From the NCBI GenBank assembly GCA_965178125.1, contig OZ237751.1, positions 558,001-622,000 on the forward strand: a DNA stretch of 64,000 nucleotides, written 5' to 3'. Within the stretch, counting starts at the first letter, position 1. Each line of letters begins with the position of its first letter. Below, piece after piece: positions 23,345-64,000 of this stretch. The notes under the pieces were generated by a model. That model worked only from the letters and a program-made list of their open reading frames with translations. It was not told the DNA's origin and did not search any database. The stretch comes from Bilabrum cf. latius (lineage: Eukaryota). Both the position numbers and the translations under genes were made by a program.

Positions 23345-23666
23345 TGCTACAGCCACCTCGGTTCAAGGACACCTGCAACGGATATTGAAACCAACGAGAA
23401 CCCACCACAACGTTTACAGTGCGATGCAATTCAAGTTGCGACCACGCACGCTGCGCTCAGCTCGAGCTGTGCGACCGTTCACAAAAAGCGAGCACAACAT
23501 TCATTTCTCAAAGAAGGCCGCTAGTTTTTGGGACATTTGAGGGTTCAGCATGTTTAACTAGTCTAAGGATGATGAGATCATGCTTGCATTGGTTGGAAGC
23601 ACCCAGTTTTCGGGCGACAAAGACCGAGGCGCTCGAGCTGCTCGCACAAGCTCATCGAGCAGCAGC

Positions 23667-28729: not shown

Positions 28730-28843
28730 TTTGTCACGTGCGATGCCTGTCCACGTCGGCGTTGTGTAAGGTTACGTAATATCCGATTGTAAGAAGGAGC
28801 CATTTCGATACTATTATAGCAACAAGACCGCAGCAGATGCCAC

Positions 28844-31161: not shown

Positions 31162-34100
31162 ATGTACGGTATTATTGGAATGGTACTAAGTTTAACTGTT
31201 GCTGAAGCTACAGTTCTGGCTGTAGGGAAACTGGAAGCATGCTTATAGAGCGGTGGTAGTACCACGCAGCCTAGCGGTCAAACTGGAGACAGTCTGCAGT
31301 GCTCGTAGAGATTTGTCGTAACCCTATCTGTGCAAAATGGGGAGACTGGGACTGAATCAGTATCATCATACTCGCTTGACAAGGCCTTTGATGAGGATGG
31401 CAGGGAGCTTGATGTTCTAGACGACGTTACAGTCACCTTGAGCAAGTCTGCCATCTCGCTTCGATATCCTCTAATATACGAGCAAGTAAGGATTTACCCC
31501 GGTGTAGTCATAGGAGATTAAAATGTGATGCTATGCGTAGCTCGAACTGCGCTACGAATAACGGAGTCTTGGATGCCGCAGATGATTCTGAACCGAAAAA
31601 CGCCACTATCGCCGACCAACCTTGCCGCTGCACGGGCACTCACCCCAGTCCCCAAACTCAGTTCTACCCGTCCCAATGCAGGATTTTAACTCTCAGCCGT
31701 ATGAATTGATACTAACTAGAGATCAGGACGGCGATCCGTACAGGTGGCCGCTGAACCAGTGCAGAGACGATCCAGACGACACAGCCTCAGCCTGCGGTGT
31801 GATGATTGACTCCAACTCGAACACTGCTGTTCCCTACAGCCATGGATTCTGTTGCAAGTGCAGCCTGCAGGACTACGTGAGCTCCGCATCTTCCATATCG
31901 AGAGCCAACCTCCAGTGCCAGCTCCTGAGCAGCAACGCAGCCCAGGGGGCTCACTGCCTCAGGTTCTCCAAGCTGTGGTACTCAGCGTTCTAGATGCGCG
32001 CGCCGGTCGTAGACTACACGGTCACTGCGCATGTGCAGCGATGCAGGCAGCAGACGGGCGCATCACCCAGCGCTACCAATGCGAATGGGACAGACTCGCC
32101 TCCGAGGCAGTGCACGGAGACAACCGTGTCGCTGGGACCTTCAGTACCAGGGGCCTGCGTAAACCTGCCTGTCGGAGCGGATGATGATGGGGATAATGGA
32201 ATTCCTTGTACGGTACTTGCATCACTAGAGGGCGATTTCGCTGCATTTGAGAGCGCGCCCGACTACGGCAGCAAGTACATGATGATTCCGCTCACCTGCA
32301 ACAGCGCGGCACTCTGCGGCTCCCGGGTGCTCGAGACCTCTGATCGGTGGATGATGGTAGACAAACACGCGGTGACGCTGGATGGCACTACATGCAACAA
32401 GATTGGTGTGTCTCACGAGGCGTTCTACTCCTAGTCGCAGAGGTGCGACAAGTATGCCAACAGCTGCCTTGACAACCAGCTGGAAGACCTCTACCAAGCC
32501 GATCTCGAGAAGGAGACCGAGGGCAAATCCGGGGATTATTTCGTCAAGTTTTAGCAGTATGGAGACAAGTTCAATCCCGAACTTAGGTCCAGCGACACAG
32601 CAGCTGCGGTGTTCCAGACGAATAGGTTCCAGAAGAGCGTGGTGACGCTGATGCTCGATGCTGATTCCATCCGGTGGACCATCAAAGTTAGTCCGGCCTC
32701 AATAACCTAGGCTGAAATCGAAAATTTCGAGGCAATGAGCAGTAGCGGGTACCTTTTGGTCGACGTCCAGAACGATGGCACGGTGGCAGGGACGTACTAC
32801 GTGCAGGTGAACTGCTCCGAGGGCATTGCACCTGTCCCTGCGCAGCCAGTAAGCCTTGCAGAGAGCGGGTCAGCCGGTGACGCTGGTAGCGTGCGATTTT
32901 CAATTTATACCACGAGCACTTTCCAGCAAGCCATGCAGGCATTGGATTAGAGCACGACCGCAAGCAGCTGGTGCCGGGTGACGCTGGTCGATAGCATCTT
33001 CAGGACGATGGACGCGACTCGCATCAACTTCACCGTGTCTCACATGGTGCAGGACAAGGGCACTCAGGGCGGTAATTTGTCCGATGGCGCTCCTACCAAC
33101 AGCACTGGCACTGGCCAAAGCGGTCCGGGGCGGCTGACAAACTCCGCAGAAGAAGGGTGTGCTGGCTGCTTCGCTCTGAATCTTTACTGCCACCTCGCTC
33201 GCTCCTGCTTCGCTCCAATCATGGCAGATGCCGCGGTGCTGCTTGGAATTGCAGCGCTAGGTTTCCTCGCATTCAAGTATCCTTCTCTGCTGTTCTGTCC
33301 GTGCCGTACCCTGTGCGGGTGCCTGTGCTCGGGCGGGGGGGACAGGGACAGCGACAGCTCTGGGTGTTGTGGCCCCAGTAGAAGCAGTGACAGGGGCAGG
33401 AAAGACAGGGGCAGCAAGAAGCGAGAACGGAGAAAACGACGCCGTGGACGTTCAGAGTCTTTGTCATCTTCAGACAGTCGGTCGAGCAGCACCAGCAGCG
33501 GTATCCGAGAACCAGGCGCTGAACCCGCATCTTGCTGCGGATGCTTAGGGTCAGGTGAAACCGTCACTACCAGCAAAACCGCCGAGAGCTAGCGAAAGCG
33601 GCAAGATTACCGTCACAGAACAAGTGGAACTCCTCAAGACAGGGCAAAGCATCGCGGGAATCGCACTCATAGGCGGCGCGCGTCCTCTTTCGACGATTCG
33701 TTTACGCACAAGTCCCGCCCCAAGTGGAGTGATGCACCAAGGATTGAAACTGGTGGAGATCGATTCTAGCAAGAGGTAGGTATGTCATGTTCAAGCGGGA
33801 GAAGGCGAGCGTCGAGTTTCTCCGCAGTCGCGGCCGGACACTGGAGTGGTGGCAAGCTTGGAGCAGCAGCGCCCGTTGCAGCTGCCTTTGGGTGCAGTGC
33901 AAATGGTCGGCATGCGGGTGCTGCTCCTGCGGGTCTCGAGGAGACCATGATGGACTACGCCGGCCATATTGCTTTCAATCAGGAGGATAGAGGAACCGTG
34001 CAGTCCATTGATAGCGATTCTATTGGTTCTGTGGCTGAACCGGCCGAGGTGAGTTGGGGCGGGGTCGGTGGAGGAGGGATTGCCGAGCCCAACGCGGAGA

Positions 34101-34690
34101 AGGGGCCACGCAACGGCAGCAGGACTGGCATTTGGGGGTCAATTGTGGGCGGGCTAGGATTGTGGGGGAGCCAATAGCCATAGGAGTCAGAGCAGCACAA
34201 CCTAGGGGCAGACCGTGACGCATACCGCAAGCGGTGGGCGACGAGGAGGCTGTCCATCCAAGTGAGCCGCACAAACCTCGGGGCAGTGCATCGGAAGAGC
34301 ATACTGCCGCCACGGTAGAACCCCTTGTGGCAGGCAAGGGAAGTTGATATACAAGATCAGGGTGTGCCCGCGCTTGCTGGTTAGACCCGCCGGCTAGCTG
34401 CAGCAAAGGACGAGGTGTCTATGTTCCGCGTCAGGGGGCGGCTGGGTCACGCTAGGCATCTTACCTCTGGAGCCGTGCTTGGGACGCACCGAGCTGGAAT
34501 CGGTACTATGTCGACTTTCTCGCACCAAGTGAACCCTGTAGCAACGGTTCCTTAGATTTTCTCGCGGGAAAGGCATACAAGGATGCCAATGGATCGAGGA
34601 GGGCCAGAGCATTTCGGCCTAGTGTCGAGTAGGCACACCCGTGCAGCGAAGTCTCTAGCCCTCAGCGCAAGGAAAAAGCCGTGGGAATGA
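31162..34690 (+). CDS. HAP2: HAP2/GCS1 gamete membrane fusogen (class II fusexin)
   Basis: Signal peptide MYGIIGMVLSLTVAEA, GKLEAC, LQCS[TAG]RFVVTL, YPLIYEQ|DFNSQPYE (intron 31486-31681), SHGFCCKC, AHCLRFSKLWY, CNKIGVSHEAFYS[TAG]SQRC...SCLDNQL, FEAMSSSG, TM segment and Cys-rich/basic tail; ~15 in-frame TAG; ends TGA TGA. Confidence 0.93.
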
Positions 34691-43546: not shown

Positions 43547-44683
43547 ATGTCTGCTCGTGATGAGCTCTTTGCAGCTCCGGGGGCGAATTCCCGGTTGAGA
43601 CAGGGGCGAGAGCCCGCTCGCTCCTAGAATGATTCCTCTCGCGCGTCCGCCTCTCTCGAGAGGTCGCGGCAAGTCGTCCTGGACCAAATCAGCAAGATGA
43701 ATGCCGCAAGTGCCACCATTCAAAGCGGCAAAGAGTCCCTGCAGCGCACTGGAGATAGCCAGCAGAGCATTTTCGGCCAGTTGACAGTTGCAAACAGCCT
43801 GTTGGATGCAATGGGATCTCGAGAAGACCGGGAGCGAATGGTGCTATCTTTGGCGTTTTGGTTCTTAGTAGCAGTGTGCACGTACATTATTTGGGCTCGC
43901 TTTGGCTATGTGACGGGCGCCCACGTTGTCCTAGGTTGGGTGTCCTGGGCAGCTAGAGCTGCGTTTGCTTGGGTTTGGTATCCCATTGGGGGAATTTTGC
44001 ACTATGCTGGGTTACTTCACGCATCAAACACCGGGGAAGAGGGGCTGGCACCCCAAATTTTGGAAGCAGCCGCCACTGGGCCCAGAGCCTCAAGCGCTTG
44101 GCCGGAGCATCTCGCGAGGGACGCAGATGGTTTCAATGGCGTTGCGCGAGAAGGCAGCACAGAATCGACGTGGGAGGTATCTGCACAGGGCATCATGCGG
44201 CCTATTGTGGCCTCAGACGGCCTTGCTGCCGAGTGGAGTGAACATGATGGTAGACAGATGGAATTCAGTGACGGGGCGGTCGATGGGGGCATGGATGATA
44301 GGGCAATGGATGGGGGCATGGATGACAGGGCAATGGATGGGGGCATGGATGATAGGGCAATGGATGAGGGCATGGATGATAGGGCAATGGATGGGGGCAT
44401 GGATGATAGGGCAATGGATGGGGGCATGGATGATAGGGCAATGGATGGGGGCATGGATGATAGGGCAATGGATGGGGGCATGGATGACAGGGCAATGGAT
44501 GGGGGCATGGATGACAGGGCAATGGATGGGGGCATGGATGACAGGGCAATGGATGGGGGCATGGATGATAGGGCAATGGATGGGGGCATGGATGACAGGG
44601 CAATGGATGGGGGCATGGATGATAGGGCAATGGATGGGGACGTGAGTGACCAGGCAGTCGATGGGGGCGAGAGTGCCGGGTGA
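43547..44683 (+). CDS. SEC20/BNIP1-like SNARE with unusual repeat-containing C-terminal extension
   Basis: ASLERSRQVVLDQISKMNAASATIQSGKESLQRT...ANSLLDAMGSREDRERMVLSLAFWFLVAVCTYIIWARF matches the Sec20 SNARE+TM pattern; one TAG at 43625; ends TGA. Confidence 0.6.
44282..44638 (+). repeat. 27-bp coding minisatellite, 13 copies (MDGGMDDRA)
   Basis: GATGGGGGCATGGATGA(T/C)AGGGCAATG tandem array with no spacers. Confidence 0.97.
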
Positions 44684-45047
44684 AAAGGCTCGGCTGCCTC
44701 ACGCTAGGATGCCACATAGAACATCCTGTGCAGGAATAGGACGACTGTGGGCCTGTTACAGGGCCGCCTGAGTGCAGACATTGCCAACAGTGTATGGTGC
44801 AAGTGTATACGTGCTTGCTCTCGACACAGGCTGCGTGCACCGACATCCTCACATCAAGTCACTATACTACTAGTATACTAATTGGCGTCGTATTAGACGC
44901 AAGCAAGCCGAATTTCGTTCTTGTCCTCATGAGACCCAGCACTTTCACAATGCGCTGCACCTGCCGATGGGTAGTTCCGGTATTACCCGGCTCGTCATTT
45001 CTGGTGTTCCACTTTTCTGTACTTTCTGCTCGACTTGAGTGTCTGCA

Positions 45048-45941
45048 ATGATTATTGCAAGCTTGGTGCTGGCTTCAGTTTGCCTGGCGGCTACTGGACC
45101 ACCGTTTGCCCCCTCAAATTGGGAGCTTGACTTCGAAGATGAATTCGAAACCCTGAACAAGACGATCTGGTATCCCAAGAATGGAACCCACTCGGGAAAT
45201 GCCGAAAAAGAGTTCTACACGCCTGAGCAATGCAGTATTAGGGATGGTAAGCTAGTTTAGACGGCAATTCCCAAGGAGACGTACGGATACAACTACACTT
45301 CGTGCTGGGTCGATACCTACGGCGCGCCAAACGGCTCTGCAGCCTTTACGTACGGCCGTTTTGAGGTCAATGCCAAACTTCCGTGGAGCAAAAGCATGTG
45401 GCCGGCACATTGGTAAGTCACGCGCTCCGACTCTCTGGCGATTTCACGCGCAATAGCACCCCGATACCGTGCAGCGTTCCTGCCTCCTCGCACCTATGTC
45501 CATCGCAGGCTCATGCCTCTGAAGGGGTTCTGCTGGCCCATGGGCGGGGAAATCGACATCATGGAGTCAGTGAGCCCCGAGGCAGACCAGGTGCACGCTG
45601 CAGTGCACTACAGTGAGAGCCAGGACTGGTCCCCCTGCGGCAACAGCAACCACGGCGCTGCCAACTTCAGTGCCAAGGTCCCTGACGGGCAGCCCAAGTT
45701 CAACGAGACCTTCACGACCTTCGGGGTGGAATGGGACCTGGATTCCATGGTGTACTATTGGAACGACACCAGTTACCTCACGGTCCCATTGCCACAGACG
45801 CACTTCGTTCAGAGCCCGTTCTACTTCATCCTTAACCTGGCTGTGGGAGGAGGTTGGCCGGGTAACCCGGACAACACCACTGTGTTCCCTCAGGAGCACG
45901 TCATCGACTGGGTGAGGCATTACGCCAAGAAATCGGACTGA
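45048..45941 (+). CDS. Secreted GH16 beta-1,3-glucanase (laminarinase-like)
   Basis: Signal peptide, WELDFEDEF, YGRFEVNAKLP, MWPAHW|LMP (intron ~45413-45508), catalytic GEIDIME, FYFILNLAVGGGWPG, IDWVR; one TAG at 45258; ends TGA. Confidence 0.92.
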
Positions 45942-46211
45942 GTCCCCGATCGGAGGAGGGGGGTTGCTTCTTCTTCTTCTTCGTACATGGCCCGAGTGGT
46001 GGTCAATGGTCATGCATGCAAGTTGTCGAGGCTCCACTTCCGTTGCTGCTTTGCTTCGGTCTACAGTTTTCGTCACATGTACTCAAATAGTGCTTATCGA
46101 TTCAAATCACACAAATCTTGAGTGCACTAATTCAAGCAGCAATTCGACAGCCAGGGCCGACTCAATGCAATGCAATGCAATGCACTGCACTGCACAACCG
46201 CGGTCCGATCA

Positions 46212-47556
46212 TCACGCAAACACCGGCAACACGACAGAATTCCACCACTCGTCCGAGAACCTCAGGTGGTCCCCCTGGAACTCGGCAAAGTGCACCTTAC
46301 CTGCCTGGTCCAGGGTCTTGAGCCCGAACGCGTCGTTCTGGTATTGCGACCACTCTCTCATCGTGTAGATGGTCTTGGTGTCCTTGTCGCCGTTCGTGAA
46401 CTTGTAGCCCCCGAACTGCTCGCTCTGGTGGGGGTACACAACGGTGTCGTTGAGCGCCATGCCCAGGAGGACAAGGTCCAGCGACTTGAAGTTGGAGGTG
46501 TAGGTGGCGTTGCTGCGGCCAGGCAGCTCGTTGTTCAGGTCGGGCAGGAACGTGTTCTGGCTGAGATACTCCGACTGGTTCCAGAAGGTGACGAAGTAAT
46601 CGGAGAAGGACAGCGGGATGGACCCGTTGAACAGGAAGTGGTAGGGATCGTCTTCGAAAAGGCCGCACAGGAACGGGATGATCTTGTAGGTGGCGGGGCA
46701 GTCGTACACCCCGTTCTCCACGCCGCACACGGCCACGTATCGCCTGACTGGTGGGTCGTTGTACTGCTCGATGTACGCCCGCACCACTGGCCCGCCCTAG
46801 CTGAGCCCAACAGCGTCGAACCCATTGGAGAGCTTGGGGTCCGCCCGAACCGTCTTCGCGAACTCGTCCACCTGCGCGGATAAAGCAATCAATGACTCTA
46901 AATTCAATTTCATGATCGGGCTGTGCGTTCATCTCGCTATGTACCGTCAGCGCATTGCCGACGAGCTGCGAAAAACCGCAGATGGCCTGCCAGCAGCTCA
47001 ATCCCCAACGGATCGCCAATTTCAGTTTTGATACTCCGTTTCCGCCTCACCTGGTCTTGCATGGGAGTGATAAAGGAGAAGAGTCCGTCAGCGACGTCCA
47101 CTGCGACGGCATACTTGCCTGGGTACTTGGTCTGCAGTGCTTGTGGGTCCCAGGAACGGCACGTTCATGGCGCTTAGGAAGCAGTACAGTAGGAAAATCC
47201 GCATGCTTTCTAAACAATTCAAAAACGAATCATCGAGTATTGCGTACGCGGCGAAGCAGTAAATGCAATTAAGAGTGCACTGGATGCCAAGATCGTCTCA
47301 CGGAAACAGACTTAGCAAGGGACTGCATTCCTGGGTTGTCGCCAGCGTCCCCGAGGCCGTGCATAAGAACTACTGGGGTGTTATCATTAGCATCAATATC
47401 TGCTTCCACTGCAGAGACGTCGACGATGGGCGCGCTAAACGGATTGGCGGCGCTCGCCAGGAAGGCCTCGATCTTGTCTAGCTCTGGGACATTAGCAGCA
47501 CCCGCAAGCAGCGCAGAAGCAGATGCACTTATTGCGAATAAAGCTGCAGTGCGCAT
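46212..47556 (-). CDS. Palmitoyl-protein thioesterase (PPT1-like)
   Basis: Signal peptide, PVVLMHGLGD, two introns, GFDAVGLS[TAG]GGPVVRAYIEQYNDPPV (nucleophile elbow), FLPDLNNE, DTVVYPHQSEQFG, DAFGLKTLD, GDHLRF; ends TGA. Confidence 0.92.
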
Positions 47557-47657
47557 TTTTGTTGAAAGATCTTATGTTGTGAGCCCTTGCGATATTTTCA
47601 TTTATTAATTCCGGTTCTTAAAGCTATTTTCGTCATTCTTGCATTTCTTCCGCGAGT

Positions 47658-50079
47658 ATGGGGCAAGGGGCCAGTGAGGTTGAACGGGAAGGAAGGGTTT
47701 CGGAGGAGTGAGGCAGTCTGGGGTGGCGGACGCGTGCATTGTAGGATTCGCAACTACACCTTCACATTCTACCTGTTGCCGCGAAGTCTCTGCAGAGAAG
47801 ATGTCGAGAACAGGATCTTGCATGCGGTAGTCAGCAATGACGTAGTTACACTGAATAGAATTTAGACCGATCATGTCTCCTCTATTGTGTGGTTGAAGCG
47901 ATATAAGCGGGAGGTGAGCTTTGGTGCCTTGTTGCCCTCAACCGGTGGTTGTGGCGAGAATGCGAACTAACTTGATGCACAGCTTCAGCCACGCTTCGCA
48001 GATGATGAGAACAGCACTACATATCGCTGTGAAGCACGATAACATCGCCGTTATCACATCTTTGTTGCGAAGGGGCGCCAGCCCAGACGTGCCTGACTCT
48101 GTGAGGAGCTGCAATAAGGACGGAAAACTCGCGCCGCTACAACGAATCTCGCGACCACTAGCACAGTCTCACGTTTATTGTTCATTTTAAGACACATTGT
48201 ATTTTGCAGATGGGCCGCACGCCGATACATGCGGCCATCGAAGGCTAGAACATAGAGGCACTTGACGCGATGATAAAGGCAGGGGCCGATCTATCCAGCC
48301 AGGACTCAGTGAGCGCCAGTGCCGGTGGCAATTTTCGATGATCTTTTTGTTTTTTGGTTTTTAACCGCGATATCGATCACTCACGAATCACACGCGGTAC
48401 GCTCCTGCAACACCCACACCTGGATGGCCAAGTACTCACCCTGGATGGCCAAGCACTCACCCACCCCCTCTTGATCGCAGGAGGGCCGCACCCCGCTGCA
48501 CCTTGCCAGCGCCCTAGGCAGAGGGGAGGCCATGGCGCACATCATCCTGGCGGGAGGCTGGTTCGCAACCGTAGAGCACACCAAGCCCGGATTGGAGCGG
48601 CACACGAATCTTGCAGCCGCCACATTTTCTCACGCGAATCGAAAGACGCAGAGAGAGGTCAGGGACATGATTCGAACGCACGCAGGAAACAGGCCCCTGC
48701 TGGCCATGAGTCTCAGCTCGCTGTGGAAACAAAGCGGGTATTCCAAGTCGTCAGTTCCGCTAGTTGCGCGGCGCCGGCTAAGGCTGATCCAATGGAGGTC
48801 CAGCAGGCTGATGGGACGTGGGATGGAGATAGCGTTCATCGCAGCGTCCGAGGGCAGGCCACTGGAGCTGGCCAGGAGGCTGCGCCAGGGCAAGCAGGCC
48901 TCCGGGCTGTTCGCGACGGGCACGCTCAAGATACCAGAGGGGGTGGAGGGCGCCGGTGAGACTGTGACGAATGTAACGTGCATGATGGCGGCCGCAGCGA
49001 ATGGACACTCCGAGTGCGTTAAGACCCTCGTGGAGTTCGGCTGGTAGCTGTCGCTTGCAAGGCAGGATAGCAAGGGCCGCACGGCTCTGTGGTGGGCTAG
49101 AGACCTGGAGATAAGGAACATGCTGCTGTCCACTAATGAAACCGACGCGGTGGACGGCCTGTTTCGTCAGTGCGACGACCTTGCAACCGTGATTGCAAGG
49201 AGGAGGAGCAAGCTAAACGAGTACGTCATCTCCCTCGCCACGGAGCATGCCATCGCGCCAGCTCTCGAGAATGCCAAGATCCGTGCTGCCGCTCTAAGGG
49301 CAGAGGCCGAGCAAACGCTCAATTTGGCCAAGGGGGTCGAGCGATATCTTCGATCTACCTACAATGTGGCCAAGGAACAGGTCAGGGAAGCCGTTTCCGA
49401 GCAGGATGCGGTGCGGGTCGCCATCGGAACCGAGACCGAGACGCTCATCAACCGGGTGTCCCAGCTCAAGCACCGCACCGCAGCCGTGCAGGCCGCGATG
49501 CGCGATGCCGCGGAAGTGCATCGCAAAGAGGCAAGCATAGTTGCAAACGTTGGTGAACTTGGAGATGCTGCCGAGCTCAGGGCTGAAGCAGATCGGTTCG
49601 ATCAGATTCGGGCCAAGGTCGCCAAGCAACTTGAGAGCAGACTTGGCGCACAAGGCCGTTCCGGCTAGAGGCGGTCAGCAGGAGCGGCTAGTGGTGCAGG
49701 CGCTGGGGATGGAAGCGATTCGGGGAAGAGTCCAAGTGATCTAGGAGCTAGTGCTGGCGTGGGCTCCGATACCGACATGATGGCGCTGGCTGGAGCTTCG
49801 ATTGAGGCTGCTCGCATGGAGCTGGCCAAGCCAAAGATCAGCAATGTGCGGGAGCTTCCTGGGCATGGAGGCCAAGGAATGCGTAAGGCTTTAGGAGGGG
49901 ACATACAGTCATTGAAATTAGTCCTGGAACGAGTGAAGAGCAAGGTCAAGGAGCTGTCGGAGAGCCGGAGCAAGCTGGCTGAGAAGGCAGAAACAACTCT
50001 GGCTGAAATATCCGCTAGCTTCGACGAGCTGCTTCCTAGGGTGGAGAGAATTGTTGCAGACACTCCTTTGTTGCAATGA
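47658..50079 (+). CDS. Ankyrin-repeat / coiled-coil protein with possible N-myristoylation motif (MGQGAS)
   Basis: Short exons with GT-AG introns encode RTALHIAV, GRTPIHAA, GRTPLHLA, TCMMAAAANGHSECVKTL, GRTALWWA; ~5 in-frame TAG; ends TGA. Exon boundaries partly inferred. Confidence 0.75.
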
Positions 50080-50230
50080 AAACGCGCAAGTGTTGTATTG
50101 AGAGTCTGCAAGTTGCGACCAGAGCTTGCGACCACCCAACGTGGAACTTGCTCGGTTGAAGCGAGCAAGGCGGTGCAGTTCATTCCACGGGGTCTTGACG
50201 TCCATTGTATCGGCTCATTCGGCTGTCAAA

Positions 50231-53200
50231 ATGGAGGCCTAGAATCAAATACAAGTACTCGATGCATTATCGCAGCGAATGCAGGTGTTTATGCAGTCAA
50301 TTTGCACGGGGTTGGACGACGTCGCGGCAATCGTGTCCGGGCAATCAGCGCAGATAGCCTCGATTCCGTCCGCGCGTTCGAGCGAAGAAGGTACTACTTC
50401 AGCAGTCGAAGCAGCTAAGCAGGTCTTCAAGTGCTTTGAACAGGTTCTGAAGCGCTAGGACCTCGTGACGATGCTCGAGCACGCAGGCGGAGCACCGTTC
50501 GGCAGCGCTCGTACAATGAAGGCAGGGTTTTTGAAGTACTCAGACCTCCTTCGTTGGTGCATCAATACTTGCAAGAGGCTTCTCAATACCTGCACTGAGC
50601 TAAAGAAAGGCCTTTCGGCCCATCGGCACTCTCATGGAGTGACCTGCCTGCAAGCTCTCCTGCTGTCCAACACTCCGATAATGCTTGCCAAGAACGTGAG
50701 CAACCCAGCAAACTAGGAGTCAACAGATGCAGATTAGCTCGAGGCATGCAGGTTCATGTACTTTTCCTGCATACCGGCGCTGCACTCGATCATCGTGCAG
50801 CTGCGCAAGCAGGGCGAGGATGAGCTCGCGAAACGCCTCCGCCTGCACACGGGAGAAGGAATGCTCATTTTGGGCGATCACGTGCCTTTTGCAACAATAA
50901 AACTCCTTAGTCATGCGCTTAATACGATCAAGGCGGGTGCGCAGCACTGCCGGGTGAACCCACAGGCTGCGAGCGACGGCATGGGCGATGAGGACCTGTA
51001 CCACGCGTCTGTCGCGAAGACCTACATCGACAGAGTCGAAATTTGCTATGAGAGATTAGTATGCAAACTTGACTCGGCTATGCTTGTCGGGTAGCTCGAT
51101 TCCGGGAGCGCAGGAGCCCACGGATCTGAAGGCGTCGGGAAGCAGATCGAGGCGGCGGTGCAGGACCTTCACGAGTTTTGCGAGGAGATGAGCAGCGCCA
51201 TGCAGCACTGCAATGCCATTAATGACGCTAACATGAGGCTGCGTGTCTGGGTCAAGACAGTGACCGCTCTCTATGGTCCGTACAGCGACGCCATCCGGGC
51301 CGCAGTGGCAGCTCACGCCCAGCGACCAGAGCCGCCCTCGGGGTCCCAGCACGGGGCCGGGAGCGACGAGGAGGCATCTAGACCATTCATGATGCTCGTG
51401 AGTGCTGCACTGGCGGTGGTTCGCATGCGGCAAGGGGCCATCGCCAGGCTGGTCGAAGCCAGGGAGGCCGTACTGGCTGAGGCAGCCGAGCAGGCTGACG
51501 ATGAGGCCGAGGAGAACCACGACGAAGAGGGGGAACCTTCCTCGGGGGCAGGCGCGGCGGCATCATCTCGGAGGCAGCGCAAGTCTGCATCCGATTCAGA
51601 CCCAGTCATGGATCGGGCGAGGGAGTGGCAGGTGGCTGCGAGGGCACATGAGGCCGAGCTGCTCGCCATGTAGGGCAACGTGTAGAACGCCCTCAAGATC
51701 GCGAGGCAGTGTGCCGACAGCAGCACCAGCCCGCTCGATGGTCTCAATGTCATGGTTGCGCGGATGCTGCTTAGCACGGGCGGATTTGGCGATGCCCTTG
51801 CGGCGCTGGAGGATGCAGCGCAGGGCATTCTCGACCTGAGCAGAGAGCAGGACGAGACGTCGGGAGACGCACCTGGCAGCAGCCGAAGCGCAGCGCCGAG
51901 CAACGCATCGATGATCGTGCTCGATGCGCTGGCAAGAACAGATCAGTCCTACAGGTCGTTACATCTGCTACGGTCCCAGAGCAGCGGCGGGTCATGGTCA
52001 CCAAAGAAGCTGGCTGTCGCATGCATCGGCCGGACGCTGTACCAGATCCTCTCGCGGTAGGGCCATCGGCTCGATGCCCGTCAGCTGCAGCAGTGCCTGC
52101 CTACCGTTCTACGGTGCATTGTGAGCGTTTCTGGACGGAGTTGCGCCGACTTCATCTTGGTGAGGCTATGCGAGCACCTCGCCTCAGCGCCACAGGACGG
52201 TGGGATGAGCGCGTTCCGAGTACTGGATGCACTGCAGTCCTCCGGGGAGCAGCAACGCGACACAGATGGGTGCTGGGAGACCGAGATCGTCCATCAGTGG
52301 CACAAAGTACATGCCGATGAGCCACGCAGCGGCAGTGCTAGCTCGTCCAAGTAGCAGCCGTTGTGGCAACAGCTGTGCTCCCGCTCAGAGGCGAACGAGT
52401 GCCTGCAGGGCGTGTGCTACGCCGCAACTCGCTCCGCACTAGCACAGAAGCGCTTCAAGGAAGCCGCCAGGCTGTGCGAGTATCACCTGCAGCTCCTCAA
52501 CCGCTACGCCAAGACAACCGCGGCCCACAAGTCGGTGCCGATGAGCCTAAGAGCTCTGGCTGTGAGCCGGACGGGTGACACGGACCGCGCCGTGGAGACG
52601 GCCAAAGCCGCCTTTGACCTTAGCAAGTCACCGCAAGCCCTACTGGTGCTGATTGCAGCGCATCTGGAGCGAGGTTCCAGGGACGGTTCGGACGAGGAGG
52701 CGGTCAAGTCCCTGCTGCCAGCCCTCTCTCGTATGCCAGGCAGCAACTCACGTCTGCTCGCATACGTCGCCATGCAGGCAAGGCGCACCGAGAGCTACGC
52801 AGCAGCGATCGCGACTCTCGAAACCCTGCTGCAGCGGCCCTTAAAGATGGCAGCGTAGTCATCAAGCGGGTGGGAGCACTCGGTCAGCACAGCGCTCGGC
52901 CTACCCGCTGCTTCATCCGGCGCAGGCAGTGCAAGTGGCATCTCCGGGCCGCTCGGTACCGGCAGCGAGGATGGAGCGCAAGGCACAGTAACCGATTCTG
53001 CCACGTATGCCATGCTGTGGATCGAGTGCTCGATGAAGCAATTAGAGAAACAGCACGCCTCCCAGTAGCACCGTGGTGATGGCGACGAACAGGGCCAGGC
53101 CGGGTAGAGCGAGATCCCGTCGGCTCTCGCGAGCACCATCTCTGCCGCTTCCATGCGCGATAGACTGCGCGAAGTGATCCAGACAATCGCGAAGTGCACG

Positions 53201-55156
53201 GACAACCCCTCCAAAACGCTCAACTCAGCTGCAGGCGACAGGCTGCTGAAGCTCGCGTGCCTGTCGTACACTATTTTGCTACAAGCTAGCGGGCAGCAGG
53301 GCAAGCTGTCAAGGGCAGCGCAGGCAGAGGCGTACGAGCTGCTGGCAGCTCTGCTTGCATCCATCCCGTCGAGCACGACCTCGCTACTGGTGGCACGGCT
53401 CAAATGCGTGCTACGAGCCATGCAGCTTCGTCTCGCGGTCGGACTGGCACTTCCAGCCGGAGACACCAGGGCTCGGCACCTCCAGCGAACCACAGAGCTC
53501 GCGGCTAGTTCGATCGGCCTGACCCAAGAGGCCCGCGGCAGGCTGCAGTCGCATCTGCAGCAGGGAGGCATAGCCTCTGCTGGGACCATGCAGGCCGCGA
53601 GCTGGAAGGCAGTAGACCAGCAGCTCAAGGCAGCAGCGCTCTCAGGCGCAAACGGCCTCGAGGTCTTCTTTCCCGAGCCAGAGCTTGCACCTGGCGCCGT
53701 GGGGGCGCTGTCCGCCCTGGACTCCGATCAGTCTGACTCGGCCGCAAGTGCAGCCTTGGAGGTGCTGCACGCTCTTGCCGCCTCTTCTGCAGCCATGGCT
53801 TTCCACGCGAAGGCAGCCCAACCTGTAAGCGCGGTCTCGAACGAGAGACTGGCAGATGCAGCGAAGCAGCTTTCAGAGCAGTATCCGCAGCATCCAACCG
53901 TGCTGGGGTATGCCGCAGCAGCCGCATTCAAGAGCGATGGCAGGGTCCCGGTGGCCGTGAAGGCACTCGCGCTGTAGCTGCAGGTCCTCCTGCGGTCTGC
54001 ACACCGCAGTGGGGAGGTGCTGGCGTCGGTGACCACGCAGCTGATCCGGTGTACTACTGCCCCTAGCAAGAAGCTCAAGTGGATTGCACAGGCCGCGCAG
54101 CTCCATGCAGATTCTGCCCTGCACCCGCCGTTTCCCGACGCCGCCTTGGATGGGATTGCGGTAGACTGCTGGAATTTTGGCGTGTCGCTGCTGCAGTCGC
54201 TCAGCTACAAGCCCGCTCTTGAGTTCCTGAGGCAAGCCATGGCCATGAGGCACAGCTGCGAGACGGTGCTGGGGAGGGAGGCTGAGCTCGCGCACAGCAT
54301 CAAGGTCGTGCAAGCGCTTGCAATGGGAAGGTCTCCCCCGGCCAGGGTGGTGGGGCAGCTCAGTCGGAATGAGGCAGCTGCTGCGGTGCCTGGCAGAAGC
54401 ATGGCCCGGACTTCTGGGAGCTCTGCCCCCATGGACGCTGCTGATGCTGCTGGTAAGCCATCAGGTGCCGGCAGTGGCCTTGATGCTAGTAGCAGTAGCA
54501 GTAGCGGTGATGGTGGTGGGGATATTGCCATGTTGGCCGCCGCCACCGTCGCATCCAAAGCTGGATCGACCGCTGCGCAACATGCGGAAGGCGCCGAGGG
54601 TGTGGAGTGCGGTGGAGAGGTGGAGGATCCCTCAGCTGCTGGGACCACCTCACCTGCAGCAGGAGGTTCGAGTGGGTCTGGTGCAGCGATTGCATCGACT
54701 GCTGTTGCACATCTTGCGTCTGACGCAGAGGGTAGGCAAGCTGTCACTGGCAGTGGCAAGAGCCCGCAACGGGAGGCTGCGGCGGCTGCTGCCGGGAGCA
54801 GCCCCGGGGATCAAGAAGGCGATGAGGGCGCTGCGACTCCAAAGAAGAAGAACTCCAATGAGTACAGTGCACTCCACGGTGCGAGAGAACCGCCAGCTCG
54901 GCGGGAGCCGGCACTCGGTAAGAAGCGAGGTCGAGAGGATGAGCTGGCTGGCGATGCACAGGAGGGCTTCGATGGAGACTCTGCCGCTCCACGAGACGAC
55001 ACCTAGCAGAAGGATGCGATTAGAGCTGATGAGCACGGAGGAGCCGACCGTGATGATCTTGAGGGAGAGGCCTAGGAGATGGATGAAGACGGCACGGAGA
55101 AGGCGGAGGTTCGAGCATCGAAAAGGTTCCGAACCGAGCCACCAGCCGAACTCTGA
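50231..55156 (+). CDS. Large helical TPR-like protein, probable ZIP4/SPO22/TEX11 homolog (~1641 aa, single frame)
   Basis: All ORF-track fragments 50465-55006 share one frame separated only by TAG (~14). TPR-like ALAQKRFKEAARLCEYHL...LAVSRTGDTDRAVETAKAA; C-terminal FPDAALDGIAVDCWNFGV resembles the ZIP4/TEX11 'P..E..WL...WN.G' segment from memory; ends TGA. Confidence 0.55.
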
Positions 55157-58393: not shown

Positions 58394-59952
58394 TTGAACC
58401 TAGACTACAGATCAGATTTGTTCCTTCAACCACACCCATTGGCGCGTCTTCACGGCTGCTGCAAATCCCACTGGTTGGCAGTTACCAAAAAGAAAAATTC
58501 CTGCCCCCGGTCCCGCGGACCCACTGGGCTTCACCCCGAACGACTGGTTCTTCAGCGGTCCACCTGAATGCGGTATTCATCTGACACTACGAATGTACAC
58601 ACCACTTTCCCCATGCACCCGACTGGCCTTGTCGCCACATGGCTTCCTGTTCCTGTTCCCCGCCCTAGGGACCGTGTGCTTTGCTCCCAGCATCGCCACC
58701 TTGGCCCTATCCTTTCAGCTTGCACGCGCCGGTCCTGGCCGACCTGCCGTGCGCCCCATCTGTCCACCCACCTGTTGGCCTTCTGCGTGCTGCTGGCCAT
58801 GCAGTCCGCTGCCACCCGCGTCTCCCTCGTGCCTTGCACCTGGAGCCCCCATTCCTCCCGTTGTGTTCTCCCTGTTGACACCGCACTGTCGTCGCCTGTG
58901 CCGGTGTCCCCCTCTTCTTCTCCACCTCCTGTCCTCCCACCTCGTCTTCCGTCTCACCTCTGCTCCCCGTTGCTTCAATCCTGATGTCCGAGTACATATA
59001 ACAGGATCTGACGTGTGCCCGCAGCTGGTGTATGTGTGGGAAGGTGGTGTTGCACTCGGGGGCGTGGCAGGACCGGAGGGCGGGGGCCAGTGTGGATGTG
59101 CTGCTGTGATCGTTGCCTTGATCGGAGTGTGGCACGATCCACGTCTTGGTGGCAGTGGCGATGCGGGGCTGCATATCATCGATGGCGGCGTCGATGATGG
59201 GCGTTGTGCAGGTATCGCGGGCGAGCTGCTGCGGTGTGAGGCTTGTGCGGGGCTGCCATGGGATGCAGAAGAAAACTTCCTGCCCCCGGTCCCGCGGACC
59301 CACTGGGCTTCACCCCGAAGGACTGGTTCTTCAGCGGTCCACCTGAATGCGGTATTCATCTGACACTACGAATGTACACACCACTTTCCCCATGCACCCG
59401 ACTGGCCTCGTCGCCACATGGCTTCCTGTTCCTGTTCCCCGCCCTAGGGACCGTGTGCTTTGCTCCCAGCATCGCCACCTTGGCCCTATCCTTTCAGCTT
59501 GCACGCGCCGGTCCTGGCCGACCTGCCGTGCGCCCCATCTGTCCACCCACCTGTTGGCCTTCTGCGTGCTGCTGGCCATGCAGTCCGCTGCCACCCGCGT
59601 CTCCCTCGTGCCTTGCACCTGGAGCCCCCATTCCTCCCGTTGTGTTCTCCCTGTTGACACCGCACTGTCGTCGCCTGTGCCGGTGTCCCCCTCTTCTTCT
59701 CCACCTCCTGTCCTCCCACCTCGTCTTCCGTCTCACCTCTGCTCCCCGTTGCTTCAATCCTGATGTCCGAGTACATATAACAGCTTCCTAGTGTGATGGA
59801 CAATTGGACTACACGAGATGATTGCGATGCTCTTTGTGGGTGATTGCGTGTATGCTAGCTGGCTATGGATAGCACACGATACTCGCTTGCAATCCAATCG
59901 CCTCCCATGATTGGGCCTCATTCTCTCCACAAGTCCCACTCCGATCCAGCTC

Positions 59953-60672
59953 TCACGTCTTCACTCCCGGGTGACACTGTGCCATGTGCGCCTTCAGGTA
60001 TGTCTTCCTCGTGGTCTCATGCCCGCACTCTGAGCACCGATGCATCACGCCCAGATGCATCGCCCGCACGTGCTGCCTCACGTTGGCCCTGTTCACATCC
60101 ACATACTCGCAGCCAGGGCAGCACCACACAGGACGGTCACGCGCGTGCTGCTGCATGTGGCGCCGGAGATTGCCAGGCTCCGACTTCCGCACTGGACACG
60201 TGGATCCGTCAGGTAGCTGCAGTCCGCACGCGTAGTGTCCTCCCGTGTGCTTGCGCTGGTGTCTGGCGCTGTTGTCCTTGGCATGGCCCTTCCTCCCCGC
60301 ATGTGTGGGCTTGAGGCAGTCCGCGCACAGGGCCGTCCACGGCTTGGCGCTGCGTCGGGGGTCCTCGGCGGGCCCGGCCATGGCCTGGCGGTACATGGCG
60401 GCGTGCCTGGATCTGACGTGTGCCCGCAGCTGGTGTATGTGTGGGAAGGTGGTGTTGCACTCGGGGGCGTGGCAGGACCTGAGGGCGGGGGCCAGTGTGG
60501 ATGTGCTGCTGTGATCGTTGCCTTGATCCGAGTGTGGCACGATCCACGTCTTGGTGGCAGTGGCGATGCGGGGCTGCATATCGTCGATGGCGGCGTCGAT
60601 GATGGGCGTTGTGCAGGCATCGCGAGCGAGCTGCTGAGGTGTGAGGCTTGTGCGGGGCTGCCATGGGATGCA
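59953..60672 (-). pseudogene. Second 5'-truncated copy (or alternative 3' cassette) of the C2H2 zinc-finger exon
   Basis: Five fingers, open frame, TGA at the homologous site; upstream replaced by unrelated repeat modules. Confidence 0.55.
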
Positions 60673-61367
60673 ATGATGCTTCCTAGTGTGATGAACAGTC
60701 GGACTACACGAGATGATTGCGATGCTTATTGTGGTTGATTGCGTGTATGCTAGCTGCATATGGATAGCACACGATACTCGCTTTGAACCAAGAAAAATTC
60801 CTGCCCCCGGTCCCGCGGACCCACTGGGCTTCACCCCGAACGACTGGTTCTTCACCGGTCCACCTGAATGCGGTATTCATCTGACACTACGAATGTACAC
60901 ACCACTTTCCCCATGCACCCGACTGGCCTCGTCGCCACATGGCTTCCTGTTCCTGTTCCCCGCCCTAGGGACCGTGTGCTTTGCTCCCAGCATCGCCACC
61001 TTGGCCCTATCCTTTCAGCTTGCACGCGCCGGTCCTGGCCGACCTGCCGTGCGCCCCATCTGTCCACCCACCTGTTGGCCTTCTGCGTGCTGCTGGCCAT
61101 GCAGTCCGCTGCCACCCGCGTCTCCCTCGTGCCTTGCACCTGGAGCCCCCATTCCTCCCGTTGTGTTCTCCCTGTTGACACCGCACTGTCGTCGCCTGTG
61201 CCGGTGTCCCCCTCTTCTTCTCCACCTCCTGTCCTCCCGCCTCGTCTTCCGTCTCACCTCTGCTCCCCGTTGCTTCAATCCTGATGTCCGAGTACATATA
61301 ACAGCAATCCATTCGCCTCCCATAATTGGGCCTCATTCTCTCCACAAGTCCCACTCCGATCCAGCTC

Positions 61368-64000
61368 TCACGTCTTCACTCCCGGGTGACACTGTGCCAT
61401 GTGCGCCTTCAGGTATGTCTTCCTCGTGGTCTCATGCCCGCACTCTGAGCACCGATGCATCACGCCCAGATGCATCGCGCGGACGTGCCGCCTCACAACG
61501 CCCCTCTGCACATCCACATACTCGCAGCCAGGGCAGCACCACACAGGACGGTCACGCGCGTGCTGCTGCATGTGTTGCCGGAGATTGCCAGGCTGCGACG
61601 CCCGCACTGGACACGTGGATCCGTCAGGTAGCTGCAGTCCGCACGCGTAGTATCCTCCCGTGTGCTTGCGCTGGTGGCTGGCGCTGTGTTGCTTGGCATG
61701 GGCCTTCGTCCCCGCATGTGTGGGCTTGAGGCAGTCCGCGCACAGGGCCGTCCACGGCTTGGCGCTGCGTCGGGGGTCCTTGGCGGGCCCGGCCATGGCC
61801 TGGCGGTGCATGGCGGCGTGTCTGGATCTGACGTGTGCCCGCAGCTGGTGTATGTGTGGGAAGGTGGTGTTGCACTCGGGGGCGTGGCAGGACCTGAGGG
61901 CGGGGGCCAGTGTGGATGTGGTGCTGTGATCGTTGCCTTGATCCGAGTGTGGCACGATCCACGTCTTGGTGGCAGTGGCGATGCGGGGCTGCATATCGTC
62001 GATGGCGGCGTCGATGATGGGCGTTGTGCAGGCATCACGAGCGAGCTGCTGCGGTGTGAGGCTTGTGCGGGGCTGCCATGTGATGCTGTCCAACATGCCA
62101 GCGTCAGCGTCAGCTCGAGCACGCATAGAGATGCTTGTAGGTGCAGTAACCCGGCCTCGTCGCTGCGGCTTGCGAGCCGGGACCAGGCTCTGGGGCATGT
62201 AGTCAGGTATGTCGTTGACTTCAATCCCATCCGACGCGTCACAGTCGCCGTCCGACTCGCACGAGCCTGGCTCGCTGACGACCACATCATCCATTGAATG
62301 TGCTCCATGAGCCGCGTCGTCCTTTGCCTGAATGCGTGCTTCAAAGCTCCTGTATCCGGAGTCAGAGCTATCGTCCCCAGCATCACTGCTGCTGCTGCTG
62401 CTGTTGGATCTGGAACTTGCGATGGACGCTCCGTCCTCGCCGCTTGATGAGACCTCCTCATCCGAGAAACCAGAACGCATACCAGCACGATTGATGCGGG
62501 ATTCGCTTGCCGCAGATGAGTCAGATTGTGAAGTCCATCCCGAATCAGAAGCAGACGACACCTCCGAGGACTCAGACGAGGCGTCTCGACGCCATTGTTT
62601 GCCACGCCCCCGAGTTGTGCCATCGTGAAATCGACCGAGCTGCTTGCTCATTGCCACACTCTCAGCTAGCTTCACCAGCTTGCAAGCGGTGTGTTCTCTT
62701 TCTGAAATAGCAGATGCCCCCATCGGAAGGCTTGGCGTGCTACTTGCATCGGGCCCTTCACGCTCCGAAGTGGATCTCATCCACCGATCGATTGCTTTGC
62801 CAGGCGACACCGACCCATGCCGAAGCTGTCGCACAATGCGCCTGCGCCGCTTGAAGTACTTGAAGAGGCCTTCATCACGATCTTGAATGGCTGTGTGAAA
62901 GTCAAGCGAAGGTATTGGCCAATCACTGGGATCATCACCTTCCCTGTTGCATGGCTCTACCGAAAGCGATCGGAATCTTGCTACTGCACTTGCCGTCCTG
63001 TCTGTGCTTCGCTCAAACCCCACTCCGAGATACCCCTTAGTCTGGACGTTGATGCCATGCAGAAGAGTTGGATGGCTGTCTAAAGATACTACATGATGGG
63101 TCGTAGATCTAGAGTCATGATCCGATACCCACAGCTAGCTCAGCGCAGAGCGACAAGCTGTGGCCCAGTCCAATCGAGCCCTATCCTATGACCGACTCCC
63201 TGACTTTTCAGAGTTGGGTTGTGCGTCACATGGATTGCATGGATCCGAGGGCTCGTTAAGCATGCTATATTCAGAACCACCAGCTGAAGGCTGCTATCTC
63301 GCTGCATGGAAAAGTGCACCGAGCGGCTAGTCGTACCTTGTTGACGGCTTAAGATCACTAGACTCGGACCGTTGCTCCTTGAGCAGCACGTCCAGCCAGT
63401 GCACACCATTCAGCTCAATGCTCAGGCTGGCTTCATCGTTGCGGTACACCGCCCGCCTGAGCTTCTGGTATTGCGACAGTGCAGTGCAGAGAATGTCGAC
63501 GGCTAGGAGACGCGCAACGACGTCCTGAATGCGATCAATACTGCCACCATTCGCATGGCTTGTAGCATGTTTACGTCTGTGCAACAATAGCTAAGCTGCT
63601 GATAGTGCACCTATGGATTGCAATTGCTGTCGCCAAGGCATCAGCTCCCCGTCCTGCCATTCCTCGACCCCATCAGGCACAAGAGCTGATGAAGACCTGA
63701 CGAACCACTCTATCTGCTGCCTCGACGCAAAACGCACGTGTACGAATACAAGCCGCTAGACTCTACTGTTTTGCATTGACTGGGTAACCTCATCCGGAGC
63801 ATAGAAGCCAAGCTGGTGCTTGGCCAGGCAGCCACGAATGGCCGAGCAGACCTTCTTCTTCCACCAGTTGGCCGACGAGCTGGGCCGAAGCAGCGTGCTC
63901 AGTAGCTGAGCCGTCGACTACTTTGGCTCAGCTGTTATGATGCGACCATTATCAAGTTCAGTCAACAGCGCGGTAGATCGAACCGCTTGCCACATGCTGG
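61368..64000 (-). CDS. Protein with C-terminal five-finger C2H2 zinc-finger array (5' end beyond window)
   Basis: CHAPEC...H...H, CADC...HQRKHTG, C...C...HMQQH, CPGC...HVRAMH, CSEC...HMAQCH; with TAG as sense the frame stays open from 64000 to TGA at 61368 (~7 TAG between 63135 and 63920). Confidence 0.8.

Follow-up and report, generated by a model that had tools for sequence, protein, structure and literature searches.

Few nuclear genetic codes give UAG a meaning of its own, different from that of UAA. The closest described systems read UAG alone as Gln (NCBI table 15) and comprise Iotanema spirale (Fornicata) and the ciliates Hartmannula sinica, Trochilia petrani and Protocruzia tuzeti; in the papers that describe them (PMC5304391, PMC11687900), UAG lies on conserved Gln columns, UAA and UGA are kept as stops and there is no sign of a dual meaning. 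For Iotanema, the decoder was predicted to descend from tRNA-Gln(CUG) by a one-base change (PMC5304391), and no suppressor tRNA was found in the two Gln cases treated in PMC11687900. The same paper describes UAG-only Leu in a rhizarian (exLh) and three ciliate metagenome-assembled genomes (MAGs), and UAG read as Ser in Scotinosphaera; its Discussion lists no stramenopile among the UAG cases. In the UAR-to-Gln codes (table 6) of Tetrahymena and other ciliates, Ulvophyceae, diplomonads, Streblomastix and Amoeboaphelidium, UAG is likewise read as Gln by a tRNA-CUA (PMC11687900). Our literature searches, which took in part of PMC11412368 and had most subscription papers outside their reach, found no nuclear code change in a stramenopile or bicosoecid.

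The assembly that holds the locus described here (48.6 Mb in 111 contigs, eukaryotic) very probably uses a nuclear code with the table 15 assignments, UAG alone specifying Gln and UAA and UGA terminating translation, as judged from sequence comparison. As in the known UAG-only Gln systems, UAG falls on conserved Gln columns, both other stops are kept and there is no sign of a dual meaning. Those systems belong to other supergroups, whereas the present organism, a single-celled eukaryote, is probably a marine flagellate of the Bicosoecida (Stramenopiles). UAA accounts for 87–98% of stops in the phyllopharyngean cases as described, in contrast to 26 TGA among 33 gene ends here. A cognate tRNA-CUA was found in this genome, whereas the published accounts report none for H. 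sinica or T. petrani and only a predicted one for Iotanema; the T32G change of Iotanema eRF1 is absent. The UAG-to-Leu (exLh, TARA phyllopharyngean MAGs) and UAG-to-Ser (Scotinosphaera) systems resemble this one in that UAG is uncoupled via a CUA anticodon, and in exLh, too, eRF1 is altered at Leu69 (PMC11687900). In the ciliate MAGs, as described, the suppressor comes from a tRNA for the same amino acid (Leu), whereas here it apparently comes from another isotype and the residue is Gln. Table 6 systems differ in that TAA still terminates genes in this genome (7 of 33 ends) and a tRNA-UUA was not found. The UAG-only Gln code type is already known; new, within the reach of our searches, are its lineage, the dominance of TGA among the stops and the apparent origin of the tRNA.

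An in-frame TAG in PPT1

The window, the whole 64,000-nt stretch of DNA that was analysed, carries on its minus strand a PPT1 gene whose coding sequence comprises 331 codons in three exons, contains one TAG in all and terminates at TGA. Exon 1 (47302..47556) encodes the presumed ATG start, a hydrophobic leader and the HGLGD motif; exon 2 spans 47051..47131; and exon 3 (46212..46871) contributes 219 codons and the TGA stop, and contains the TAG together with all three catalytic residues. Two GT–AG introns flank exon 2, one 170 nt long at 47132-47301 and the other 179 nt long at 46872-47050, and the joints that skip them, including that at the 3' end of exon 1, are present in contigs of runs X5 and X7. 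The Pfam Palm_thioest profile (PF02089) matches the frame with an E-value of 7.7e-51 and 173.7 bits against a curated cut-off of 26.8. The best PDB matches are PPT1, and the GFSQGG of the bovine enzyme (1eh5) aligns with the TAG-bearing motif.

The original prediction read the minus strand as GGG CTC AGC TAG GGC GGG and placed the TAG on the conserved Gln next to the catalytic Ser. Re-reading gave the same letters: positions 46811-46788 are GTT GGG CTC AGC TAG GGC GGG CCA, with the TAG at 46799-46797. This TAG (46797..46799, minus strand) is codon 137 of PPT1 and is equivalent to Gln116 of the bovine enzyme, in whose numbering the catalytic residues are Ser115, Asp233 and His289 (PMC3500292). 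The Ser codon AGC (46800..46802) of the G-L-S-Q-G-G nucleophile elbow aligns with Ser115 and with S in all 79 residues of its column. The Asp codon of N-D-T-V-V (46446..46448) and the His codon of G-D-H-L (46266..46268) lie downstream of the TAG and align with Asp233 and His289. Among 85 aligned homologues, the TAG column holds Q in 79, a gap in 6 and no other residue, so the predicted conservation is borne out by the alignment, with no homologue departing from Gln. The Ser-Asp-His triad and the G-x-S-Q-G elbow are both present, and elbow, triad and hydrophobic leader are alike in this protein and in known PPT1 (PF02089, 1eh5); the sole oddity is the codon used for Gln.

The proposed assignment to Gln rather than Trp, Leu, Tyr or pyrrolysine agrees with the 79 of 79 Q at this site, with genome-wide log-odds that are far lower for Trp, Leu and Tyr, and with the lack of a PylRS match, which is weak as an absence. 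The site supports Gln, but its description as the cleanest single-site evidence is too strong, the switch-II Gln of small GTPases and eRF1 position 44 being comparable. Misleading single sites also exist: at eRF1 position 69, TAG stands on a column that is Leu in 111 of 117 homologues. The PPT1 site alone is compatible with a nonsense mutation, so a relative, dN/dS and other genes are needed to exclude one.

A DNA contig of run X1, which may be the source sample, spans 45000-48879 with no differences from the window. Spliced contigs of X5 and X7, runs from two other study codes, also cover the PPT1 TAG with no differences, and in them both PPT1 introns and the intron of the neighbouring GH16 gene have been removed. 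We take X5 and X7 to be RNA because their contigs lack introns, no run being recorded as RNA. At the level of contigs, which hide rare variants, TAG is thus confirmed in DNA and RNA as anticipated, CAG appears in none, and mature mRNA retains UAG. The in-frame TAG of the GH16 gene (45258..45260, plus strand) is unchanged in the spliced RNA contigs, and two in-frame TAG in a neighbouring ankyrin-repeat gene (49045..49047 and 49666-49668, plus strand) show no differences in the X5 and X7 contigs. The convergent GH16 (plus) and PPT1 (minus) transcripts, at 45055-47567, lie inside one 2,092-nt spliced X5 contig; this suggests that their 3' ends overlap, although one contig over two genes proves no single transcript.

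Two of ten metagenome loci (L126 and L127) represent a relative with 79% nucleotide identity and the same neighbour genes, in which TAG is kept at the PPT1 codon; the remaining eight, all more distant, have CAG or CAA there. In-frame TAG also occurs in the Sec20 and DUF5054 genes of L126. Downstream of the TAG, dN/dS of PPT1 against L126 is 0.067 (194 codons, dS 1.4). A metagenome protein with 98% identity (P0004) has Q at the PPT1 site, as read at the protein level. With TAG present in DNA and spliced RNA and kept in a relative, and with dN/dS low, the data are at odds with a pseudogene, with a sequencing error and with editing, and the in-frame TAG is not damage. We are highly confident, as for the code reading as a whole, that it is read as a normal Gln codon, in what is predicted to be a functional thioesterase of lysosomal type. 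The PPT1 protein itself is ordinary, and the site is a good marker of the genome-wide UAG-to-Gln code. The relative has an additional glycoside-hydrolase-like gene between PPT1 and GH16 (L126:1661-3048) that is absent from the window, and the Sec20 frame of the window finishes with a long array of tandem MDDRAMDGG-type units (44250-44650) that is absent from the L126 Sec20.

TAG and gene ends across the genome

HMM matches were counted with read-through of all three stops. The 28 dynein AAA_6 matches contain 20 TAG and no TAA or TGA, and the 65 Ras-family matches contain 48 TAG, 1 TAA and 2 TGA; taken at face value, the last three count against the reading. Dynein heavy chains were followed at 19 loci, each of 10 kb: with only TAG read through, 11 of the frames extend over the full 3,333 codons, as against longest frames of 315–2,478 codons at the same loci under the standard code. 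The 19 frames hold 270 TAG in 61,982 codons. A UAR-to-Gln code (table 6) was considered and rejected, given that TAA ends 7 of 33 genes and is absent from all 28 dynein matches. Within the window, frames of at least 600 codons number 1 under the standard code, 13 with TAG as sense and 14 with TGA as sense. Since reading TGA as sense lengthens frames equally, frame length alone is not diagnostic, and HMM matches and homologue columns were relied on. The lack of TAA and TGA in the 13 window frames was left unused, since these very codons had set the limits of the frames and the argument would be circular.

The dynein frames were aligned, with X at each TAG, to 149 outside dynein proteins, the near-self P0301 being omitted, and columns with at least 30 of the 149 homologues were scored. 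TAG columns are Q in 9 of 10 cases at a conservation of at least 90%, 17 of 23 at 70% and 27 of 44 at 50%; the corresponding counts for CAA, used as a control, are 14 of 14, 26 of 34 and 35 of 60. The six non-Gln columns among the 23 comprise 5 Glu and 1 Val, a scatter similar to that of CAA (8 of 34). In this test, each of the 61 sense codons returns the residue expected under the standard code, and none of the 44 conserved TAG columns is Tyr or Trp. Summed over 181 TAG columns, the log-odds are +134 for Gln, −73 for Glu, −77 for Lys, −213 for Leu, −310 for Tyr and −456 for Trp. The switch-II Gln of small GTPases (DTAG-Q-E motif) is encoded by TAG in 4 of 7 cases and by CAG in 3, two further regex matches being other sequences. 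P0301 was also considered as a TAG-truncated fragment and rejected, its ends not falling at TAG codons.

CAG is the usual Gln codon of the dynein genes (2,262 against 270 TAG) and TAG the rarest. The share of TAG per dynein gene (L057-L075) ranges from 1% to 25% and is higher as GC3 falls, so that TAG behaves as an AT-leaning minor codon. Standard-code annotation cuts short the genes of this lineage.

C-termini could be defined for a subset of all genes, by homology at 13 of the 19 dynein ends and by the prenylation motif at 20 of 29 GTPase loci. The dynein genes end in 10 TGA and 3 TAA and the GTPase genes in 16 TGA and 4 TAA, giving 26 TGA, 7 TAA and no TAG over the 33 ends. TGA is the main stop here. 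In-frame TAG was found 12 and 20 codons upstream of true stops; over the final 60 codons of these genes, TAG makes up 2 of 47 Gln codons, compared with 9% overall, though these numbers are small. One dynein gene contains 48 TAG in 3,333 codons, a density at which termination at each site can only be very low. Rare or low-level termination at UAG may be compatible with the 33-gene sample.

A tRNA with anticodon CUA and the release factor

An Rfam search that scored 63 of 780 candidates gave 48 tRNA matches. A tRNA with anticodon CUA lies at G000:C23:907607-907679 (69.8 bits) between long TAG-containing frames, has a fully paired canonical cloverleaf with an oligo-T run downstream, and is single-copy in pattern and DNA searches of the genome. 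ARAGORN labels it "Pyl", a label that we rejected as reflecting the anticodon only; the fold of tRNA-Pyl is not a canonical cloverleaf. A PylRS search gave no TIGR02367 match, which is weak as an absence. None of 5 short-loop and 21 long-loop pattern hits is a tRNA-UUA, although atypical tRNAs can be missed by such patterns. An anticodon with C34 reads UAG and not UAA (PMC5304391), so UAA should be unreadable by tRNA-CUA and UAG uncoupled from it. We propose that this tRNA decodes UAG and would be charged by GlnRS, for which one gene was found in the genome; its alignment revealed no change attributable to anticodon recognition. The tRNA-CUA motif was absent from the prokaryote genomes and viral contigs searched, a phage BLAST returned generic tRNA matches only, and a D-loop pattern proved too loose, with about 15,000 matches, the same as the control.

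One eRF1 gene was found, with two in-frame TAG and a TAA stop; we read the other two matches as Pelota-like. Human position 44 is TAG on a column that is Q in 115 of 117 homologues, and position 69 is TAG where homologues have Leu in 111 and Q in 4 of 117; L69Q is also seen in one plant eRF1. The GTS, NIKS (TASNIKS) and YxCxxxF motifs, E55 and S70 are intact. The protein has diverged beside GTS and TASNIKS; A27T, R28K, G29A, N30D, I35V, S60V and K130H are each found in at most 2% of the 117 homologues; the 27–30 block lies at a splice junction and is read from genomic DNA only. Only one branch of the tree is longer than that of this eRF1 (0.79). In yeast eRF1, L69A raises UAG readthrough slightly, N30A has no effect on termination, and S33 and S70 serve UGA (PMC4381064). 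The N-domain substitutions would lower recognition of UAG, with S33 and S70 keeping UGA as the main stop, and judging from its sequence a weakened response of this eRF1 to UAG is plausible.

Other explanations of the TAG codons have to be weighed against a reassignment to Gln. Under the standard code, the PPT1 TAG would be a single-site accident, either a CAG-to-TAG nonsense mutation in a pseudogene or a sequencing error. It stands one transition from the usual Gln codon, and the near-identical P0004 has Q at the site; however, the TAG recurs in three runs, is kept in the syntenic relative despite 79% nucleotide identity with dN/dS of 0.067 at dS 1.4, and is one of hundreds of in-frame TAG, those of eRF1 included. 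Conservation in the relative and the genome-wide pattern have already refuted an accident, and we give it next to no weight. U-to-C editing that restores CAG in the mRNA before translation would also result in Gln at every site, but spliced contigs from two studies keep TAG at PPT1 and GH16, contigs of the same runs keep it at the two ankyrin sites, and a tRNA-CUA exists; we consider the probability of editing negligible.

A UAG of ambiguous or context-dependent meaning, which specifies Gln inside genes yet terminates close to certain 3' ends or acts as a leaky stop at which the tRNA competes with eRF1, would be in keeping with the intact core motifs of eRF1, the single copy of tRNA-CUA, the position of TAG as the rarest Gln codon (rarest in high-GC3 genes, 1–25% per dynein gene) and its 2 of 47 Gln codons near gene ends, a small sample. 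It is very unlikely in view of the 33 genes of which none ends in TAG, the TAG 12 and 20 codons before true stops and the dynein gene with 48 of them. That UAG encodes not Gln but Tyr, Glu, Leu, Trp, Lys or pyrrolysine, or else a Gln/Tyr mixture, could be argued from the Tyr stems kept by tRNA-CUA (12 of 14 and 8 of 10 bases) together with C1–G72, a eukaryal Tyr determinant, and from the five conserved TAG columns that are Glu. We regard this as extremely unlikely, as Gln leads by more than 200 log-odds units, no conserved TAG column is Tyr or Trp, and tRNA-CUA is without A73 and G34, has a canonical cloverleaf and is unaccompanied by a PylRS match. A minor mischarged fraction of tRNA-CUA may be compatible with the data. 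We therefore retain UAG as Gln.

The origin of tRNA-CUA was examined against 34 nuclear tRNA sequences of 25 anticodon types, a set in which nuclear Trp, His and Leu are missing. The best match is tRNA-Tyr(GUA), aligned without gaps (score 76), followed by Glu (59), with the two Gln tRNAs at 58.5 and 55. The acceptor stem agrees with that of tRNA-Tyr at 12 of 14 bases and the anticodon stem at 8 of 10, together 20 of 24; the same 24 bases agree at 12 and 6 with the two Gln tRNAs, and 268 pairs of different isotypes give a mean of 8.5 (sd 3.0, maximum 16), although these two stems were picked after inspection. Both differing pairs are compensatory, a G27–U43 wobble is common to both tRNAs, and a C1–G72 start is confined to these two of the 34 sequences. 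Over all four stems, the agreement with Tyr (29 of 42) is not above the null maximum of 30, and the D-stem matches tRNA-Gln(UUG) at 8 of 8 and Glu at 7 of 8 positions. Compared with tRNA-Tyr, tRNA-CUA has lost A73 and G34 and presents G73, G2–C71, A37, U35, G10 and a D-arm of Gln/Glu type. A73, G34 and C1–G72 are listed as eukaryal Tyr determinants and G73, G2–C71, A37, U35 and G10 as bacterial Gln determinants, eukaryal Gln determinants not being tabulated there (PMC9976931, Table 1). The genome's own Gln tRNAs have C2–G71, unlike the G2–C71 of tRNA-CUA. Within the incomplete tRNA inventory, tRNA-CUA is not closest to the genome's own tRNA-Gln, and only its D-arm is Gln/Glu-like.

A path from tRNA-Tyr(GUA) to tRNA-CUA would involve G34C, loss of A73 and gain of G73, G2–C71, A37 and the Gln/Glu-type D-arm. 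We lean towards this descent, a Tyr-derived amber suppressor captured by GlnRS in a Tyr-to-Gln identity switch; su3 mutants of tRNA-Tyr with A73G reportedly insert Gln. A smaller but appreciable chance belongs to descent from tRNA-Gln or from a tRNA outside the set, such as tRNA-Trp(CCA), the likeness to Tyr being due to chance or later conversion. The D-stem, the four-stem count, the post hoc choice of stems and the gaps of an inventory whose 25 anticodon types do not include nuclear Trp, His or Leu favour such an origin, and a Trp-derived amber suppressor accepts Gln in E. coli (PMC9976931). Against it stand the 20 of 24 stem bases shared with Tyr, beyond the null maximum and the values for Gln, the compensatory pairs, the shared wobble, the gapless alignment and the restricted C1–G72. 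Glutaminylated amber suppressors made in E. coli from tRNA-Trp, -fMet and -Ser resemble the proposed Tyr-derived tRNA in that U35 and changes at the acceptor end hand a non-Gln body to GlnRS; they are described as bacterial laboratory mutants (PMC9976931), whereas the tRNA here, if charged as predicted, would have arisen naturally and become fixed in the nuclear genome of a eukaryote. The tRNA-Tyr(GUA) gene at L012:1501-1573 (G000:C1) is without an intron, although eukaryotes are reported to conserve the intron of tRNA-Tyr more than any other tRNA intron (PMC12168002).

A Tyr-derived, Gln-charged tRNA would run counter to the one-base change in tRNA-Gln(CUG) that the literature leads one to expect. 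The fuller scenario we judge to be evenly balanced between true and false: two or more species that form a bicosoecid clade would have the first known altered nuclear code of the Stramenopiles, arising via a tRNA-Tyr-derived suppressor turned Gln, with eRF1 dropping UAG through changes outside the classic motifs and a virophage using the same code. If it is true, our literature searches give no earlier instance in which a eukaryotic decoder of a stop codon arose naturally from a tRNA of another isotype. Having the tRNA, GlnRS and eRF1 together in one organism with expression data makes the origin of stop-decoding tRNAs and the loss of UAG by eRF1 testable.

Lineage, an integrated virophage and other genes

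A quick eRF1 tree of 81 rows (80 of 120 hits) contains a nine-row clade with Bicosoecida sp. CB-2014 (SH-aLRT 99), into which the longest branch, that of Willaertia, is not drawn. The first PPT1 match carrying an organism name is Cafeteria roenbergensis. A mitochondrial contig of 38.4 kb (G000:C111, L137-L140) reads TGA as Trp (code 4) and, with genes named by characteristic sequence features, presumably has atp8-atp1-atp6 consecutively and an N-terminal nad11. Code 4, this gene order and an N-terminal nad11 have been described for Cafeteria and Cafileria (PMC6723347). Mitochondrial atp1 is also found in oomycetes and others (PMC4824035), and the mitochondrial traits support Bicosoecida without being exclusive to the order. 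A search for cox1 homologues returned one named row among 120 and gave no placement. The 18S rRNA was read over 1,700 nt. The C. roenbergensis genome, described as 34-36 Mb with about 70% GC, differs from this one in size and GC (PMC6972860). From one gene tree, made by a quick method and with a long branch, and from the mitochondrial traits, the organism is likely to be a bicosoecid stramenopile.

The mitochondrial contig has only 10 tRNAs by ARAGORN, and all its recognisable genes end in TAA. Two adjacent ORFs, one at 27680-29287 and a nad11-like one at 29288-30154, have a short segment in common. Should the mitochondrion import cytosolic tRNAs, its avoidance of TAG stops might be tied to the nuclear code, which is speculation. 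A second 18S sequence on L001 (G000:C95, 17.9 kb), which presumably is diatom-like, is 83% identical to the main array on C12 and indicates another organism in the assembly.

A low-GC (33–44%) island at G000:C12:915001-932000 (L187, L188), interrupted by a high-GC stretch, is an integrated virophage. It carries major and minor capsid genes (Sputnik-type Pfam matches), an rve integrase with a chromodomain, a GIY-YIG nuclease and weak ATPase matches. Ten virophage frames contain 84 TAG against 90 CAA and 22 CAG, which suggests that the element makes heavy use of the host code. No relatives of its capsid were found in the viral contigs. Cafeteria carries endogenous mavirus-like elements, which this virophage recalls. 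Viruses of this lineage have to cope with the host code, and giant viruses with predicted variant codes have been described (PMC13524828).

Elsewhere in the window, 23541-26066 encodes a DEAD/H helicase, 31592-34690 HAP2/GCS1 (E 1.9e-93) and 50102-55156 a weak SPO22/ZIP4 match. We take the helicase to be of the MER3/HFM1 type, and the three genes are suggestive of sex and meiosis. Duplicated segments at 58400-61400 copy each other and part of a zinc-finger frame at 61371-63998.
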